DNA from: an uncultured Candidatus Saccharibacteria bacterium
GTDB taxonomy: Bacteria; Patescibacteriota; Minisyncoccia; 2-02-FULL-40-12; GWA2-44-9
NCBI GenBank assembly: GCA_964436165.1
Contig: CAYTBY010000004.1
Span: 1 to 58,796 of the forward strand
Direction of reading: 5' to 3'
DNA: 58,796 nt
Shown here: positions 55,201 to 58,796 of the stretch, in pieces
Position numbering within the stretch: position 1 is the first letter of the stretch
Layout of the letters: each line of letters starts with the position of its first letter
Made by a program: the position numbers and the translations under genes
Notes under the pieces: model-generated
Databases searched by the model: none
Told to the model about the DNA's origin: nothing
What the model saw: the letters and a program-made list of their open reading frames with translations, nothing else

Positions 55201-57117
55201 GATGTAATTTAATTCATGGACATTGGAGACGCCATTCTCTTTATCAAAGATAGCCACATTGCATTGTGACAGGTCATTATTGTGAACATGGGTATTATGG
55301 GCATCGTATAGCTTGATGCAGGCAGCGTTTTGATGGGTATCACTGACATAATATACATTACGAATTATGTTGTTTCGGAGAATGACGTAATCGGCTTGCT
55401 CAACACGTATCCCGTCGTAGTTGCCCGTTCCTCCGGTTGAGCCAGTACTGCCCTTATTGATTATCATATTTTCAATTATCACGTTATTGGAGCTTTGAAT
55501 GCGAATATCAGTACTTGGAGCGGTAACAAAACCATCCCAAATTATATGGTTCCTGCTTGATGTACCGATAACTGGATTATTAACCCCATTACCTCCCTGA
55601 AGATTCCTTGAAACTATCGGCTGATGACGTGAACCACTTACTGGTGTATAGGCACGAAAAGAGATGGGTTGGGAGGCAGTTCCGGAATTGGAGGGATTAA
55701 ATTTGGGATTGGGATCGCCAGATATGGCCACCGTAATATCCGTATACGTTCCGTTTTTCACACAGACTGTAGCTCCGGCGCTGATGGGAGTAAAGGTTCC
55801 TACTCCTCCGCCTTGTTCTCTTGAAGGAATACCATCAACTGCTCGGTGGAGTGTCCGCCATGGCGCTGTTTCACTAGTGCCGGCATTGGAATCACTAGCA
55901 TTGGTATGGTTCTGATCAACGTAATGAGTGCAGCTAGTCGTAGAAATTGGTGTTGGAGTTGGTGTTGGTGTTAGGGTTGGGGTGGGGGTAGGAGTAGCAG
56001 AGGGGATCGGTGTAGGAGTAGGTGTGGGAGTTAACGTAGGAGTCGGTATTGATCCCCCGCTACCCAATACATACTGCCAAGTTTCACCAGCACGAGCACT
56101 AGAAGCATTCTCGTCAGCCCATAAAATAATGCGATCTTGGAAAGGAACGTAAGTCATTTCAAAATGATGAACCTCTGGACGGGGAGTACCAGTGACATTA
56201 GTCCAAGTATTTATGTTGTAGTCATAAGTCCAGGTTGTATTGTTGTCGGCAGCAACAAGGACTGCCAACTGGCTTTGGATGTCATAGGCCATTTTTAGAA
56301 AAATACCTGTCGGCTGGCCAGTAGTTCCTCTTAGACTCCAGCAGTTAGTATTATAATCATAAGCCCAGGTTTGCATTAATCCGTTTGAACTATAGCCGGT
56401 CATCAAGACTCTATCGACGGAATATACATAAGCCATAGCGTGAGTGTGCATAGCTGGAGGACGATTACTTAAACAGCTTGGACTCATTATAGAATCTCGA
56501 TTCTGCCAGGTATTGGTTGCATCATCATAGGCCCAGGTTACGTTGTCCTGAAAATAGTATCCTCCAAATAGAATCGCCCGATCAGATTCACTGTCATAAG
56601 CCATAGCGTGACCCCAGCGGTTGCCAGGGTTAGAGACCGGATTAGGATTAGTCCAGCTATTGGTGTTAAAATTGTAAATCCAGGTTTCGTTGCTGCCACT
56701 GCCTCCTTGTAGCTGACCGCCATAAAGAATCATCCGATCACTTGTGCTATCATAGACCATCACCGCATGGCCGCGGGGGCTGGGTCTTGATGCTGGCGAC
56801 ATTTGTGACCAAATATTGGTTCCTACGTTATATATCCAGGTCTGATCAGTATAAGTGGCGCCGCCATGGTCACCAAACATAACAATCCTCTGGCTTTCGG
56901 AGTCATAAGCCAGGGCTGGGCCATCTTTATGACCTGGGGGGCTGGTTGAGTTGAGTAGGGTCCAGGTGCCGGATACTTGAGCCAAAGAAGGAGAAGAAAT
57001 ATGTGCTGTATACAAGAATCCAAAACTAATCGTCGTAGCAATTATTAGTACAAAAAAGAAATGAAACCTGTGATGATGTTCCTTAATATAGTCCGGGAGA
57101 AATTTATAAGAGGACAT
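52243..57117 (-). CDS. Large multidomain surface protein: Kelch-like propeller, right-handed beta-helix, GH16, Ig-like and C-terminal pilin-like membrane domain
   Basis: MAYDSES repeats; parallel beta-helix repeats; GH16 EIDIIE; PT linkers; C-terminal ...GNP...AKK...AIIG. Confidence 0.85.
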   Translation of the reverse strand: MSSYKFLPDYIKEHHHRFHFFFVLIIATTISFGFLYTAHISSPSLAQVSGTWTLLNSTSPPGHKDGPALAYDSESQRIVMFGDHGGATYTDQTWIYNVGTNIWSQMSPASRPSPRGHAVMVYDSTSDRMILYGGQLQGGSGSNETWIYNFNTNSWTNPNPVSNPGNRWGHAMAYDSESDRAILFGGYYFQDNVTWAYDDATNTWQNRDSIMSPSCLSNRPPAMHTHAMAYVYSVDRVLMTGYSSNGLMQTWAYDYNTNCWSLRGTTGQPTGIFLKMAYDIQSQLAVLVAADNNTTWTYDYNINTWTNVTGTPRPEVHHFEMTYVPFQDRIILWADENASSARAGETWQYVLGSGGSIPTPTLTPTPTPTPIPSATPTPTPTLTPTPTPTPISTTSCTHYVDQNHTNASDSNAGTSETAPWRTLHRAVDGIPSREQGGGVGTFTPISAGATVCVKNGTYTDITVAISGDPNPKFNPSNSGTASQPISFRAYTPVSGSRHQPIVSRNLQGGNGVNNPVIGTSSRNHIIWDGFVTAPSTDIRIQSSNNVIIENMIINKGSTGSTGGTGNYDGIRVEQADYVILRNNIIRNVYYVSDTHQNAACIKLYDAHNTHVHNNDLSQCNVAIFDKENGVSNVHELNYIHDVYSYGVLFNGFTSSRCGACPVQGNIIRNNVIANTPVGVLFNLGDASRDGNMSVYNNTMHNGRIGIAEYISLPGMQFYNNIINLNTVPNGYNNASLRFDPGSPTTTQLLSNYSNYRAPTSPYAGFFLSGGIQSLSQWQSLGFDLNSITTDPLFVGPLTGTPPATAFRLQSGSSARNAGRIGGISSGSAINMGAFITGSEIIGIGGTVISPTPTPIPTPTQTPTPTPTPTPTPTPSSLPAFSAIVLPQELLPTPPAGTVWQLTFYDEFDGSTIEGTKWNQLGDYLRQNLTVPPNWWTRDASYLNGQGQLVQRTGLDNGIPAYTSGAIDTNGKYNQKFGYFGAKIDFMMQPGNWGAFWMLSGDYTRVDNSAQDGAEIDIIEKPAIGDIINNGSGWDGYGVDHQGDSLLSNVPGISQGYHEVGLNWQPTEYRFYADGNQTFQSSGGGVSQQPGYVLVTNEVGTWGGDIAQASLPDYMYVDYVHSYYHVPITPYTYTFSASPDSAYSDAGTELNNGLFSPTDFRNSEWVGIIGQPSFNFDIQISPASGNIPNQVTLHTLRNQASGIYLPTRIELWCGLTRNMEWTLAQPVTDGLYQIILQGLPSNCQQSRLKIWNSWWTFLSEIVLGQPGIDVTPPAISITAPADGSIISGTNVLLSALATDAVGVVGVEFRFDGASGVALGPEDTTLPYSVTFDSTQFTNGSHKLTARARDSAGNRNTAVVYITVQNVANPPCTITSATWQGGSQYNVGDTATLNLIVADPVACNGQTINLNIYEEDPLNPDDLIAGPLAQIFNSSTSAVTYTYQLTPQDYIDGGNESGNEEIYFTAQVQGQSNYVQSNQVNFFNVVLPSPTPTPTPTSTIGPTPTPIPTSTIGPTPTPTPTSTSSGPIAQGIGSNFTVQSVPRIFAGLACYSVRFALIAVGIVFIYSGIAFMLSRGNPTGFANAKKAFLYAIIGGLVIYGVYTIILSISLMVTGSTILPWIPLTCS

Positions 57118-57754
57118 TTGGAAGTAATTTTTTAGCTTCAGAATTGAAAAATTCTTTTAATTCTTCAACAGAAAGTGGCTTAACCATTTTGGGCAATGCT
57201 ACAATATTTCTAACTTTAGCAAAAGAACTTCCTATAGTTAACGGGTCTAACTTAGTGTTGAATTTAATTAATACCTTGTTCTGTAGTTTTTCTAGCGAGT
57301 ATTTTTGAATAAGAAAATAGAGATCTACAAAATCTTTGGGATCAAAACGGTCAGTAATTGTAATTAGTTTATTGACGGCGATATCAAATTCGCTATCCAC
57401 CCTAGCGCCATTAAAATCATTGGCAATTTCAAGCTGTTTGAAAGGATATTTTGTAAACTCAACTTTATATTCTTCATCCCCTGCGCCATAAAAAAACTGA
57501 TTACGATCATACAATTTAGAAAATCTAGTTTTCTCAGCTCCGACTATCTTTCTTAGGTCATCTGCAATACTATGAATAAAAATTGGATCGAAATCGTCAA
57601 AAGAAAAAAAATCCAGATCATCGGATATGCGATGATACAAATAATAACCAGCCAAAGCTGTCCCGCCGGTTAGATATAAATTATTCAGATTTTTTTTCGA
57701 GAAAACAAAACCTATGGCTTTTTTCTGCCATTCTTTTAGAATTTCTTGTTCCAT
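57104..57754 (-). CDS. AbiEii/AbiGii-family nucleotidyltransferase toxin, paralogue 2
   Basis: Highly similar to 22430..23080. Confidence 0.9.
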   Translation of the reverse strand: MEQEILKEWQKKAIGFVFSKKNLNNLYLTGGTALAGYYLYHRISDDLDFFSFDDFDPIFIHSIADDLRKIVGAEKTRFSKLYDRNQFFYGAGDEEYKVEFTKYPFKQLEIANDFNGARVDSEFDIAVNKLITITDRFDPKDFVDLYFLIQKYSLEKLQNKVLIKFNTKLDPLTIGSSFAKVRNIVALPKMVKPLSVEELKEFFNSEAKKLLPNVLL

Positions 57755-57936
57755 AATAGAAGTTCGAGAAAGGCTCTTTTTTCATCTTGAATATTAAGTT
57801 CTTCGAGGTATTTCTCGAGCTGTTTTTTATCCAACTTTTCATCGCCCAAGCCATAATTTATTAACCTTTCTAAATGCCATTTTGGATCATGCTGGGCCTG
57901 CTTCTCATATTCTGTTGTATTATAATCCCAAGGCAT
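57736..57936 (-). CDS. Small partner (putative antitoxin), paralogue 2
   Basis: Similar to 23062..23262 with the same overlap. Confidence 0.8.
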   Translation of the reverse strand: MPWDYNTTEYEKQAQHDPKWHLERLINYGLGDEKLDKKQLEKYLEELNIQDEKRAFLELLLWNKKF

Positions 57937-58100
57937 AATTAGATTATATCACATTTGCCACCCAAAACAAAAAGGAAATGAAACCTGTGGTGACGTTCTT
58001 TAATAAAACTGGCCAATTGGTCTGATAAGGACACTAGTTACATTATACTAAATATTTTCTATTTTAAAAAATGTGTTAAAATACAGTAGTTATGGCGCCA

Positions 58101-58397
58101 CCCTCACACCTACTCAGCTTAATCATGTATTATTTCTATGTCTTAAAAAGTACCCAAGATAACGAACTTTATTTTGGATACACCGAAGATCTAAAGAATA
58201 GATTGTTGCAACACAATTCCGGGGAGGTTCAATCTACAAGATTGAGAAAACCTCTAATTTTGGTATACTATGAGGCATACACATCACAATCTGATGCTAA
58301 ACACAGAGAATATAGCATTAAGCTGAGAGGTAATGCCTATCTACAGCTAAAAAGAAGAATAAAGAATTGTGTTGCAAAAGCTGAGTAGGTGTGAGGG
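58101..58397 (+). mobile_element. 297-bp TIR element carrying a GIY-YIG gene, at the 5' end of a tRNA-Glu-like sequence
   Basis: Perfect 20-bp TIR ccctcacacctactcagctt / aagctgagtaggtgtgaggg; CGCCA duplicated on both sides. Confidence 0.85.
58125..58388 (+). CDS. Stand-alone GIY-YIG nuclease
   Basis: YFYVLKS...LYFGYT.DLKNRL.QHN.G...LVYYEAY...A..RE. Confidence 0.92.
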   Translation: MYYFYVLKSTQDNELYFGYTEDLKNRLLQHNSGEVQSTRLRKPLILVYYEAYTSQSDAKHREYSIKLRGNAYLQLKRRIKNCVAKAE

Positions 58398-58685
58398 CGC
58401 CATCGTCTATCGCCAGCCAGAGGCTGGTCCGCCCATGGCGGAGTTAGGACATCCCGCACATAGCTGTTCCGCTGACCGCCAAACAAAACGGGGGCGGGCT
58501 ATATGCGGGACAGGTATGCTTCCTTGCCCCGTACATAACTCCCACTAAATGGCCTCATCGTCTAGTGGTTAGGACATCGCGTTCTCATCGCGGGAACACG
58601 GGTTCGACTCCCGTTGAGGCTGCTAATGGTGGGAGTTATGTGCGGGATCATTCTAGTAACTGGGGTTCAAATCCCCATGGCGGTG
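58396..58685 (+). pseudogene. Interrupted tRNA-Glu-like sequence
   Basis: 5' part GGCGCCATCGTCTATCG[30 nt]GTTAGGACA; 3' part TCATTCTAGTAACTGGGGTTCAAATCCCCATGGCGGTG. Confidence 0.65.
58551..58622 (+). tRNA. tRNA-Glu(CTC)
   Basis: Acceptor GGCCTCA/TGAGGCT, D arm, anticodon arm TCGCG-TTCTCAT-CGCGG, T arm ACGGG-TTCGACT-CCCGT; CCA not encoded. Confidence 0.95.
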
Positions 58686-58796
58686 CAAAAGTTTTAGAAA
58701 AATTTATAAAATTTTGAAGATTATCTAAATACTCAGGATTCTGAATGATCAATTTATAAATCTTTATCAGCATAGTTCTAATCCCTCCGGCCCTGC

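Follow-up and report, generated by a model that had tools for sequence, protein, structure and literature searches.

An intact tRNA-Glu(CTC) gene lies in the loop of a hairpin that is itself located between the 5′ and 3′ parts of a second, most likely dead, Glu-type tRNA gene in an uncultured Candidatus Saccharibacteria bacterium. The findings presented here suggest that this locus is a decayed example of small selfish hairpin elements of CPR/Patescibacteria that break tRNA genes but bring a replacement copy with them. Hereafter, the window is the whole 58,796-nt stretch analysed (contig CAYTBY010000004.1 of assembly GCA_964436165.1), G numbers denote genomes (G000 being the genome that contains the window) and C numbers denote their contigs.

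An intact tRNA-Glu gene is nested within an interrupted Glu-type tRNA gene

The first-pass annotation, made from the sequence alone, had described an intact tRNA-Glu carried by a hairpin element within an outer tRNA-Glu split by three inserts. This observation was confirmed, and the three inserts were found where it had placed them. The features of the locus are as follows:
58092-58388 (+): small GIY-YIG nuclease ORF, stop codon included; the longest ATG is at 58092 and the likely start is the ATG at 58125, giving 87 aa
58101-58397 (no strand): hairpin element enclosing the GIY-YIG ORF, with 20-nt perfect inverted arms at 58101-58120 and 58378-58397, flanked by a 7-nt direct repeat of the tRNA acceptor 5′ strand (58094-58100 and 58396-58402)
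58396-58412 (+): outer tRNA-Glu-like gene, acceptor 5′ strand and start of the D arm
58413-58442 (no strand): 30-nt double mini-hairpin inserted in the outer D loop
58443-58451 (+): outer tRNA, rest of the D arm and position 26
58452-58510 (no strand): first hairpin (E1) of a double-hairpin unit, 59 nt, with 13-nt arms and a GC-rich 33-nt loop
58511-58527 (+): 17-nt spacer between the two hairpins, which may be a remnant of the outer anticodon stem and loop
58528-58646 (no strand): second hairpin (E2), with 18-nt arms enclosing the tRNA
58551-58623 (+): inner, intact tRNA-Glu(CTC)
58647-58660 (+): residual stretch between E2 and the outer T arm, which may be a remnant of the anticodon 3′ strand and variable loop
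58661-58685 (+): outer tRNA, T arm (58661-58677), acceptor 3′ strand (58678-58684) and discriminator base

ARAGORN found a single tRNA in the window, the 73-nt inner tRNA-Glu(CTC), which has a full cloverleaf and scored 58.4 bits against the Rfam tRNA model RF00005 (gathering score of 29). It was the only Glu(CTC) gene found in the assembly. The 30-nt insert folded as two 6-bp mini-hairpins (z -3.46), E1 as one hairpin (z -3.54) and E2 as a long stem enclosing the tRNA (z -8.0), and for each of them 0 of 200 shuffles folded as well. A search for inverted repeats showed that the E2 arms (58528-58545 and 58629-58646) are 18 nt long and 94% complementary, that the outermost arms of the unit (58451-58465 and 58634-58648) pair with each other (15 nt, 93%) and that the arms of the nuclease hairpin are 100% complementary.

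Lack of read support for the assembly had been named in advance as a condition that would refute the observation. In order to address this, we aligned Logan contigs to the locus. Run X1, the likely source sample, provided contigs covering 58050-58593 and 58564-58796, run X2 covered 58469-58699 and run X3 covered 58549-58709, in every case with 0 differences. An assembly chimera, in which reads from different tRNA-Glu genes of the metagenome were wrongly joined, is therefore very improbable. Although the locus lies 110 nt from a contig end and the two X1 contigs overlap by only 30 nt inside the inner tRNA, the X2 and X3 contigs bridge the critical joints, the sister species G005 shares 58396-58555 and the architecture recurs in many independent assemblies.

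The outer tRNA gene is most likely dead

Removal of the 30-nt insert restored a 16-nt D arm that differed at one base from that of the tRNA-Glu(TTC) of the genome. The T arm is a perfect 5-bp stem and the only orphan T arm of this kind in the contig. The acceptor (58396-58402/58678-58684) pairs at 6 of 7 positions, with one G.G mismatch and a G1.U72 wobble that is also present in the intact Glu(TTC) gene. The possibility that the outer halves derived from unrelated neighbouring tRNA remnants had also been raised beforehand as a refutation. Among the 40 tRNAs called by ARAGORN in the genome, both halves were closest to the same gene, tRNA-Glu(TTC) at G000:C28:164-238 (summed score of 32, next best 17), so they belong to one former Glu gene. 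The presence of this intact tRNA-Glu(TTC), whose existence elsewhere in the genome was one of the points proposed for verification, means that the outer copy is dispensable.

We then attempted to rebuild the outer tRNA by in silico excision of the inserts, as had been suggested. Removing only the D-loop insert gave no new tRNA. Of 5775 single-deletion variants, 304 gave calls ending at the outer 3′ end, all of 79-100 nt with assorted anticodons and none (0 of 5775) a tRNA-Glu. Of 8379 double-excision variants, in which the 17-nt spacer was used, 171 gave calls (TCC 114, TCG 44 and TGC 13), never Glu, but 77 of 1000 shuffled controls also gave calls, the best reconstructions were barely better than shuffles and we do not rely on this result. 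Hence, acceptor, D arm and T arm are present but no convincing anticodon arm was found, which leaves undecided whether a complete cloverleaf underlies the inserts, and the outer anticodon was not shown to be Glu. A weak mascRNA-like match that was also a low-threshold ARAGORN tRNA at 58619-58685 (27 bits against a gathering score of 42.5) was set aside as below threshold.

Comparison with the sister species G005 indicated that the outer gene and its copy there are decaying. In G005, the locus aligned from 58396 to about 58555, including the 17-nt spacer, and then lost homology, and it carried a different hairpin at a different point of the same D loop.

RNA-level removal of the inserts was not supported

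As an alternative, the first-pass annotation had proposed that the stems are excised from the precursor RNA. In such a scenario, the hairpins would act as a new kind of bacterial tRNA intervening sequence, cut out for example by RNase III and by RNase P/Z acting on the inner tRNA, with the outer halves ligated or held together by the stems so that both tRNAs are made. In favour of this, the inserts are strong stems, an RNase III gene is present and the outer cloverleaf is still perfect after removing the insert in 21 of 42 loci elsewhere (see below). However, besides the failed reconstructions, the G.G mismatch and the loss of the 3′ part in G005, no RtcB ligase was found in a genome that is 100% complete by marker genes. 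No intron family matched 57900-58796 at E up to 10, while the same tool detected the genuine tRNA-Tyr intron of this genome (contig C8) as an ordinary group I ribozyme (Rfam, 50 bits). In addition, inserts of this class sit in the D stem, at position 26/27 and inside the anticodon, and in three layers at G010:C32. None of the datasets found to contain the stretch is on record as RNA, so expression and processing were not examined. We consider RNA-level removal very unlikely.

The nested layout recurs in related genomes

In order to investigate whether the layout applied to other loci, we searched related CPR/Patescibacteria genomes, in which hairpin elements carry either an ~85-aa GIY-YIG nuclease gene or a tRNA in a loop. 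Every tRNA-carrying copy inspected by eye sat inside a tRNA gene. Specifically, tRNA-Glu(CTC) lies inside tRNA-Glu(CTC) in G010:C71 and G052:C25, Thr(GGT) inside Thr(GGT) in G010:C37 and Thr(TGT) inside Thr(TGT) in G034:C1, and in all four ARAGORN found a canonical outer tRNA after excision. In G002:C11, a tRNA-Ala(TGC) is split in its anticodon by one hairpin holding a GIY-YIG ORF and a second holding tRNA-Ala(TGC), while G010:C32 presents three layers.

A scan of a public genome collection gave 57 matches, 42 of them with a tRNA in the loop. Motif-bounded excision restored an outer tRNA with the same anticodon in 21 of the 42, with a different anticodon in 1 and none in 20; these counts rest on ARAGORN, which is permissive. 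The four-arm architecture with the tRNA in a loop was found at many loci for at least seven anticodons, and the insertion point was fixed per tRNA type. The restored junctions mostly read G|element|C, a target too loose to explain why the cargo always matches the host. A heptamer pattern used in another search was not specific, since its reversed control matched about as often and only 3 of the 25 listed places were nests. In a further search, most one-mismatch matches were not examined. The central palindrome of the element family occurred in 42 of 105 genomes of the order, with up to 47 copies per genome, and its reversed control in none.

Several data pointed to mobility. The outer gene of G052 lies behind the same upstream gene (63% and 52% aa identity) as uninterrupted tRNA-Glu(CTC) genes in G017 and G020, so that filled and empty alleles of one site exist among relatives; for the site of the window, only the partial, decayed copy in G005 was found. 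The inner tRNA-Ala is identical by eye over its 73-nt body between G002 and G010, which are different genera. Finally, a contig from another study (run X4) carried 58453-58653 at about 94% identity with unlike flanks on both sides.

A rival explanation is that two neighbouring Glu tRNA genes were scrambled by replication slippage or recombination at palindromic repeats, without any element carrying a tRNA. Indeed, the genome is full of hairpin repeats and a dead tRNA-Val(CAC) copy with a D-loop hairpin lies next to a live one on contig C10. Moreover, the inner and outer tRNAs are 91-97% identical in 5 of the 21 restored loci, which fits duplication of the target on the spot, or later gene conversion, as well as carried cargo. 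Against this, the architecture and its fixed insertion points recur, a near-identical element occurs in two genera and the unit appears with different flanks in run X4. In the window, inner and outer tRNAs differ strongly, with about 21 of 26 and 14 of 25 positions matching in the two halves (by eye). Local rearrangement alone is thus improbable, although less so than RNA-level removal.

The unit resembles a non-autonomous inverted-repeat element linked to a GIY-YIG nuclease

The 198-nt unit (about 58451-58648) has the terminal inverted repeats and small size of a MITE and contains only a tRNA, with no transposase gene. Regarding copy number and an autonomous partner with the same ends, the data point both ways and leave the question undecided. 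E1 belongs to a multi-copy family (at least 13 BLAST places in G010, 5 in G016 and one inside an ORF at G000:C42:3913-3977) and the 30-nt insert has 3 copies in the genome at up to 4 mismatches, whereas the E2 arms occur nowhere else in it. Similar ends flank a GIY-YIG ORF at C1:4245-4546 and short elements on C6 and C43. A metagenome scan for the E2-type arms returned 74 loci, ~145-nt hairpin elements with no Rfam match in the 4 loci tested, and none held a tRNA. For this arm family, tRNA cargo is therefore seen only here and in the relative from run X4. No target-site duplication flanks the unit or the restored junctions elsewhere, where precise removal restores the tRNA.

The window ORF matched the GIY-YIG profile PF01541 with 54.4 bits (cut-off of 22.6), and two other element ORFs with 47.8 and 62.1 bits. 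The nearest solved structures are the UPF0213 proteins 1ywl and 1zg2; catalytic residues were not checked one by one. The ORF ends 8 nt before the outer tRNA and its hairpin sits directly against the 5′ end of that tRNA, while in G002:C11 nuclease and spare sit in adjacent hairpins of one insert. Thus, an endonuclease gene is associated with an insert that carries a duplicate of the target gene. The same nuclease hairpin, 80% identical, abuts an intact tRNA-Glu(TTC) in G009, where the flanking 7-mer matches the acceptor of that tRNA, and a 71% identical copy abuts a tRNA-Thr fragment in G032. In the genome of the window, 5 of the 7 GIY-YIG ORFs lie within about 140 nt of a tRNA gene.

Discussion

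Altogether, these results support, with a probability of roughly 0.75, that the locus is a DNA-level selfish-element scar and not a spliced gene. In this view, a resident Glu-type tRNA gene was invaded by the double-hairpin unit, the spare tRNA-Glu(CTC) does the work and the redundant outer gene is decaying, with a further mini-hairpin in the D loop, an acceptor mismatch and a lost anticodon arm. The unit would belong to a class of hairpin elements whose autonomous form carries the stand-alone nuclease gene in a hairpin loop, this locus being a decayed member that uses a different arm family. The interpretation of the first-pass annotation, that an element disrupting a tRNA gene can carry a replacement as cargo and that the outer gene is probably dead, is accordingly supported in both parts. 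What the analysis demonstrated directly is the anatomy of the locus, the recurrence of the layout, the shared anticodon of cargo and host, the filled and empty sites among relatives and the near-identical element in two genera. The mechanism, in contrast, is inferred: the nuclease would cut tRNA genes at exposed points of the cloverleaf (3′ side of the D stem, position 26/27 and anticodon loop), the filled allele would then spread by repair or gene conversion with the outer tRNA halves acting as homology arms, and the long stem around the spare would be cut by RNase III before RNase P and RNase Z finish the tRNA. No nuclease activity, transcript or transfer event has been observed, and neither cleavage of the empty target nor copying of the element by repair was assayed here.

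A more far-reaching hypothesis, which we regard as tentative and less likely than not, is that CPR bacteria host a homing system built for genes that cannot splice. A bare ~85-aa GIY-YIG nuclease, possibly structure-specific, would cut tRNA genes at exposed points of the DNA cloverleaf, the filled allele would be copied in using the broken halves as homology arms and a cut-resistant spare in a hairpin loop would keep the host alive. Repeated rounds would build two- and three-layer nests and move tRNA genes between genera, the window being an old, ORF-less layer made with a second arm family.

If the main reading holds, tRNA genes of ultra-small bacteria are a habitat for a selfish element that solves in a new way the problem of landing in an essential gene: it does not splice, as introns and inteins do, nor restore only a gene end, as islands and mobile endonuclease ORFs (mORFs) do, but carries a whole spare gene inside a hairpin. 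This would explain broken tRNA copies and odd tRNA counts in CPR genome bins, offer a route for tRNA genes to move between lineages and give the very common stand-alone UPF0213-type GIY-YIG proteins a testable role. For annotation, such loci hold one live gene and one or more dead shells that tRNA finders miss or miscall.

Comparison with known systems

Literature searches, which covered listings and abstracts but not supplementary files, found no description of nested tRNA genes or GIY-YIG hairpin elements in bacteria. Bacterial MITEs and palindromic elements (Rickettsia palindromic elements, REPs) and mitochondrial double-hairpin elements are likewise short, multi-copy, hairpin-forming units that insert into genes and into each other, and the four-arm double-hairpin layout is shared. 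Those families are not reported to carry a tRNA gene in a loop or to sit inside the cognate tRNA gene, and our searches found no such report.

Group I introns in bacterial tRNA anticodon loops (Rfam RF00028) also interrupt tRNA genes, including the tRNA-Tyr of this genome. Here, however, there is no ribozyme core, the inserts lie outside the anticodon loop as well and the host gene is not maintained.

Integrating elements also target tRNA genes and leave fragments. At the tRNA-Thr(GGU) locus of Caldiarchaeum subterraneum (PMC3293823), a 5′ fragment of the old gene is left beside a complete tRNA of the same anticodon. That element is 1.8 kb, encodes a recombinase and resides in an archaeon, whereas the inserts described here are 150-500 nt hairpin units. 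We rejected integrase-type integration: the three upstream ORFs (an AbiEii-like protein, a Kelch/Ig surface protein and a PRK/CYTH protein) hold no integrase domain, only the first 600 nt of contig C26 having been read downstream of the contig end, and the outer 3′ part is not a repeat of the inner one.

SegB, a free-standing GIY-YIG homing endonuclease of the phage T4 tRNA gene cluster, cleaves within tRNA genes, recognising a 27-bp site that includes the T-stem-loop motif, and drives co-conversion of its own gene and its flanks (PMC2330249). As here, a GIY-YIG nuclease gene lives among tRNA genes, but SegB is a phage protein with a DNA-binding extension, has no hairpin arms and no nested or duplicated tRNA, and its spread depends on phage co-infection, while the proteins found here are bare GIY-YIG domains of about 85 aa and of the UPF0213 type.

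In the mORFs of fungal mitochondria, such as atp6 of Allomyces macrogynus and atp6/atp9/cox2/nad3 of Glomus sp. (PMC3630166), an endonuclease-associated insert also lands inside a gene and brings a foreign duplicate of the displaced part, leaving the native part behind as an unused remnant, and a horizontal origin of the inserted copy is inferred there too. Those are protein genes in organelles, only the C-terminal part is duplicated and the endonucleases are LAGLIDADG or larger GIY-YIG proteins. Here, the host is a bacterium, the target is a tRNA gene and a whole tRNA is carried in the loop of a long inverted repeat, ORF-less (MITE-like) forms exist and layers can nest.

An intact tRNA-Glu(CTC) lies within the pieces of a second tRNA-like gene

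The locus belongs to contig C4 of a 1.15-Mb, 58-contig bacterial genome that is 100% complete by marker genes and has a tmRNA gene. The nested arrangement described in the first-pass annotation, an intact tRNA-Glu carried by a hairpin inside an interrupted one, was confirmed. The features considered here were as follows.

57104-57754 (- strand), ORF next to the locus, matching the AbiEii nucleotidyltransferase toxin family
58092-58388, ORF encoding a small GIY-YIG nuclease
58094-58100 and 58396-58402, 7-nt direct repeat of the tRNA acceptor 5′ strand
58396-58685, pieces of a second, outer tRNA-like gene
58413-58442, 30-nt insert splitting the outer D arm
58451-58465 and 58634-58648, left arm of the first hairpin (E1) and right arm of the second hairpin (E2)
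58551-58623, inner tRNA-Glu(CTC)
58661-58684, perfect T arm and acceptor 3′ strand of the outer gene
58742-58796, end of the contig, identical to positions 1-55 of contig C26

ARAGORN found a single tRNA in the window, tRNA-Glu(ctc) at 58551-58623, which Rfam scored at 58.4 bits against a gathering score of 29. Around it, the outer gene kept an acceptor 5′ strand and a D arm split by the 30-nt insert, followed by the T arm and the acceptor 3′ strand. The three inserts (the D-loop insert, E1 and E2) folded as the first-pass annotation had claimed, with z-scores of -3.46, -3.54 and -8.0, and 0 of 200 shuffles folded as well. The E2 arms are 18 nt long and 94% complementary. In addition, the left arm of E1 pairs with the right arm of E2, and the two hairpins therefore form one four-arm unit of about 198 nt.

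Since an assembly error would have overturned the observation, we examined the support for the contig. Logan contigs of the probable source run covered 58050-58593 and 58564-58796 without a difference, while two further samples of the same study bridged 58469-58699 and 58549-58709, also without a difference, so that a chimera is excluded by independent contigs. A contig from a different study carried 58453-58653 with 10 differences and 2 gaps, and its flanks were unlike the window on both sides, which suggests that the double-hairpin unit with its tRNA occurs in another sequence context in a related organism. The last 55 nt of the window contig being identical to the first 55 nt of C26, the locus probably continues into that contig.

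The outer gene derives from one Glu gene and looks dead

In order to determine whether the outer halves could be unrelated remnants, we compared them with the 40 tRNAs of the genome. Both halves were closest to the same gene, tRNA-Glu(TTC) at C28:164-238 (summed score 32, next best 17), indicating that they come from one Glu gene. This intact gene also settles whether a tRNA-Glu(TTC) exists elsewhere in the genome, a check that had been proposed beforehand, and it makes the outer copy dispensable. The inner gene is the only Glu(CTC) found in the assembly. Neither tRNA encodes CCA, which is ordinary here, as only 12 of the 40 tRNAs do.

The outer gene has a G.G mismatch in its acceptor. As had been suggested to test whether it could still form a tRNA, the inserts were removed in silico and the products were submitted to ARAGORN. 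Removing the D-loop insert alone gave no new tRNA. None of 5775 single-deletion variants gave a tRNA-Glu using the outer 3′ end, and the 304 calls obtained were 79-100 nt long with assorted anticodons. When both hairpins were removed and the 17-nt spacer between them was kept, a 72-78-nt tRNA was called in 171 of 8379 variants, with anticodons TCC, TCG or TGC, but 77 of 1000 shuffled controls also passed, so that these reconstructions do not decide whether a complete cloverleaf can be rebuilt. The spacer and the stretch after E2 may therefore be the remains of the anticodon arm, with E1 at position 26/27 and E2 in the loop, although this is not secure. Altogether, the outer gene looks dead.

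These results bear on the alternative raised in the first-pass annotation, that the stems are excised from the precursor RNA. Such RNA-level removal is unlikely: RtcB was not found in the genome, no intron family matched the region, and the outer gene is not maintained, either here or in the sister species G005. In contrast, the real tRNA intron of this genome, in tRNA-Tyr(GTA) (C8:12969-13286), is a group I ribozyme (Rfam RF00028, 50 bits). On the same contig, a tRNA-Thr(GGT) miscalled as His by ARAGORN (C8:7914-8223) carries a 236-nt insert after its anticodon loop, which holds three copies of a T-rich hairpin and has a group-I-like 3′ core by eye, but no Rfam hit. ARAGORN also called a tRNA-Phe(GAA) with a 1766-nt insert at C1:141942-143799, where Rfam found nothing at E up to 0.01 in the stretch searched; this call was not examined further. 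Finally, at C10:1480-1668 an intact tRNA-Val(CAC) is followed 41 nt later by a second Val(CAC)-like copy with a hairpin pair in its D loop and no matching acceptor 5′ strand (Rfam 28.6 bits, below the cut-off), which looks like another dead copy beside a live one.

A GIY-YIG nuclease hairpin abuts the outer gene

The ORF directly upstream of the outer tRNA (58092-58388) encodes a small GIY-YIG nuclease (Pfam 54.4 bits), whose nearest solved structures are the UPF0213 proteins 1ywl and 1zg2. It is enclosed by perfect 20-nt inverted arms, and the hairpin is flanked on both sides by the 7-nt acceptor 5′ strand of the tRNA it abuts. The same nuclease hairpin, 80% identical, abuts an intact tRNA-Glu(TTC) in genome G009, while a 71% identical copy in genome G032 abuts a 36-nt 5′ fragment of tRNA-Thr(GGT), which is followed by the complete gene. 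The flanking 7-mer differs in each of the three genomes and each time matches the local tRNA. The window genome has 7 such ORFs, and 5 of them lie within about 140 nt of a tRNA gene.

Arms resembling those of E1 and E2 flank another GIY-YIG ORF at C1:4245-4546 and two short elements on contigs C6 (9387-9518) and C43 (406-548). The short elements and metagenome loci L167-L240 represent a widespread family of ~145-nt elements with ~20-nt inverted ends, which begin with the same motif as the E1 and E2 arms, and an AT-rich interior. No Rfam match was obtained in the 4 loci tested, and neither a function nor a cargo is known for them. An E1-like hairpin (78% identical) also sits inside what reads as a protein-coding gene at C42:3913-3977. 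The ORF at 57104-57754 (- strand) matched the AbiEii family (PF08843, 49.7 bits), for which no partner gene was sought. Some relatives of this family are said to act on tRNA. An integrase island is excluded by the gene content, the three upstream ORFs holding no integrase domain.

Filled and empty sites among relatives

The locus was compared across relatives, as had been proposed. In the sister species G005 it aligned from the outer 5′ end through E1, the spacer and the left arm of E2 and then lost homology, and its D loop held a different hairpin at a different point, which is what decay of a dead gene should look like. In G010, from another genus, a tRNA-Glu(CTC) whose body is 95% identical to the inner tRNA of the window lies inside a tRNA-Glu(CTC). 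The first 22 nt of that outer gene match the outer gene of the window, allowing for the D-loop insert of the latter, and removing the 165-nt insert in G010 restored a canonical 73-nt tRNA. G052, from a third genus, has the same layout at the same point. The outer gene of G052 lies behind the same upstream gene as uninterrupted tRNA-Glu(CTC) genes in genomes G017 and G020 (63% and 52% aa identity), and therefore both filled and empty sites exist.

The inserts of G010 and G052 belong to a four-arm double-hairpin family whose central palindrome occurs in 42 of 105 genomes of the order, up to 47 times per genome, while the reversed control occurs in none. About 24 of the 30 loci inspected by eye showed all four arms. 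The loops are usually about 20 nt, and long loops hold either a GIY-YIG ORF (at least 8 cases) or a tRNA (at least 6 cases). All 6 tRNA-bearing copies seen sit inside a tRNA gene. In 4 of them the outer gene was restored by excision and has the same anticodon (Glu(CTC) twice, Thr(GGT) and Thr(TGT)), while in the other 2 the outer gene is decayed. Among the nuclease-bearing copies, the one on contig C11 of genome G002 splits a tRNA-Ala(TGC) within its anticodon and holds a tRNA-Ala(TGC) in its second hairpin. A three-layer nest of tRNA-Ala was present at G010:C32:6900-7685, where the outermost gene is split twice and a GIY-YIG hairpin is followed by a second split tRNA-Ala whose insert holds the intact tRNA-Ala(TGC), identical over its 73-nt body to that of G002. 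The contig ends before the 3′ parts of this nest. Five other nuclease-bearing copies had no tRNA within 901 nt. Pure local scrambling does not explain the recurring architecture or the cross-genus identity.

In order to extend these observations, we searched a public genome collection with a pattern for the second hairpin with a tRNA-sized loop, which gave 57 matches in 56 records. Public records carrying the related elements were mostly titled as Patescibacteria or Parcubacteria-group lineages. A tRNA was present in 42 of the 57 matches: Ala(TGC) in 20, Ala(CGC) in 4, Glu(CTC) in 6, Thr(CGT) in 4, Cys(GCA) in 4, and Thr(GGT), Lys, Ile and an odd Tyr call in one each. Motif-bounded excision restored an outer tRNA with the same anticodon in 21 of 42, with a different one in 1 and with none in 20. 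Some of these records probably overlap the genomes examined individually, so the counts are not fully independent. Moreover, ARAGORN is permissive and the pattern scans see only elements that keep the chosen motifs. Insertion points are fixed per type: inside the anticodon for Ala and Cys, in the 3′ strand of the D stem for Glu and Thr, and after nt 27 for Ile. Junctions mostly read G|element|C, and the identity between inner and outer tRNAs within a locus ranges from 0.62 to 0.97.

Interpretation and comparison with known systems

The idea in the first-pass annotation that an element disrupting a tRNA gene can carry a replacement as cargo was supported. What the data show is a hairpin element family that is mobile, judged by copy number, filled and empty sites and identical copies in two genera; autonomous-looking members with a bare GIY-YIG gene; members with a tRNA in a loop that are found inside the cognate tRNA gene; and outer genes ranging from perfect to ruined. 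For the window itself the cognate rule could not be confirmed, because the outer anticodon is lost. This locus represents an ORF-less, decayed member built with a second arm family.

The mechanism, on the other hand, is our inference; there are no RNA data and no biochemistry. In this view, the nuclease would open tRNA genes at sites that lie at loops and junctions of the cloverleaf. Prokaryotic stand-alone GIY-YIG domains are Slx1-like (PMC1564403). Slx1 is a structure-specific nuclease, and UPF0213 proteins belong to this cluster; neither point was tested here. Because the target (G|C) is too loose to explain the matching anticodons, the filled allele probably spreads by repair that uses the outer halves as homology arms, and the spare would remove the cost of the insertion. 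The high inner-outer identity in 5 of 21 loci leaves open that the spare is sometimes copied from the target itself, or is homogenised later by gene conversion. In the window, the E2 stem is a plausible RNase III site, the gene being present, ahead of RNase P and RNase Z.

We found no paper describing a whole tRNA carried in a hairpin element inside its cognate tRNA gene in bacteria, in a search of listings and abstracts that did not extend to supplements. The closest systems in logic are the mORFs of fungal mitochondria, which insert with a foreign copy of the displaced gene end (PMC3630166). The closest in enzyme and habitat is T4 SegB, a GIY-YIG homing endonuclease that cuts within tRNA genes (PMC2330249), while integrating elements that leave tRNA fragments beside a complete gene are known in archaea (PMC3293823).
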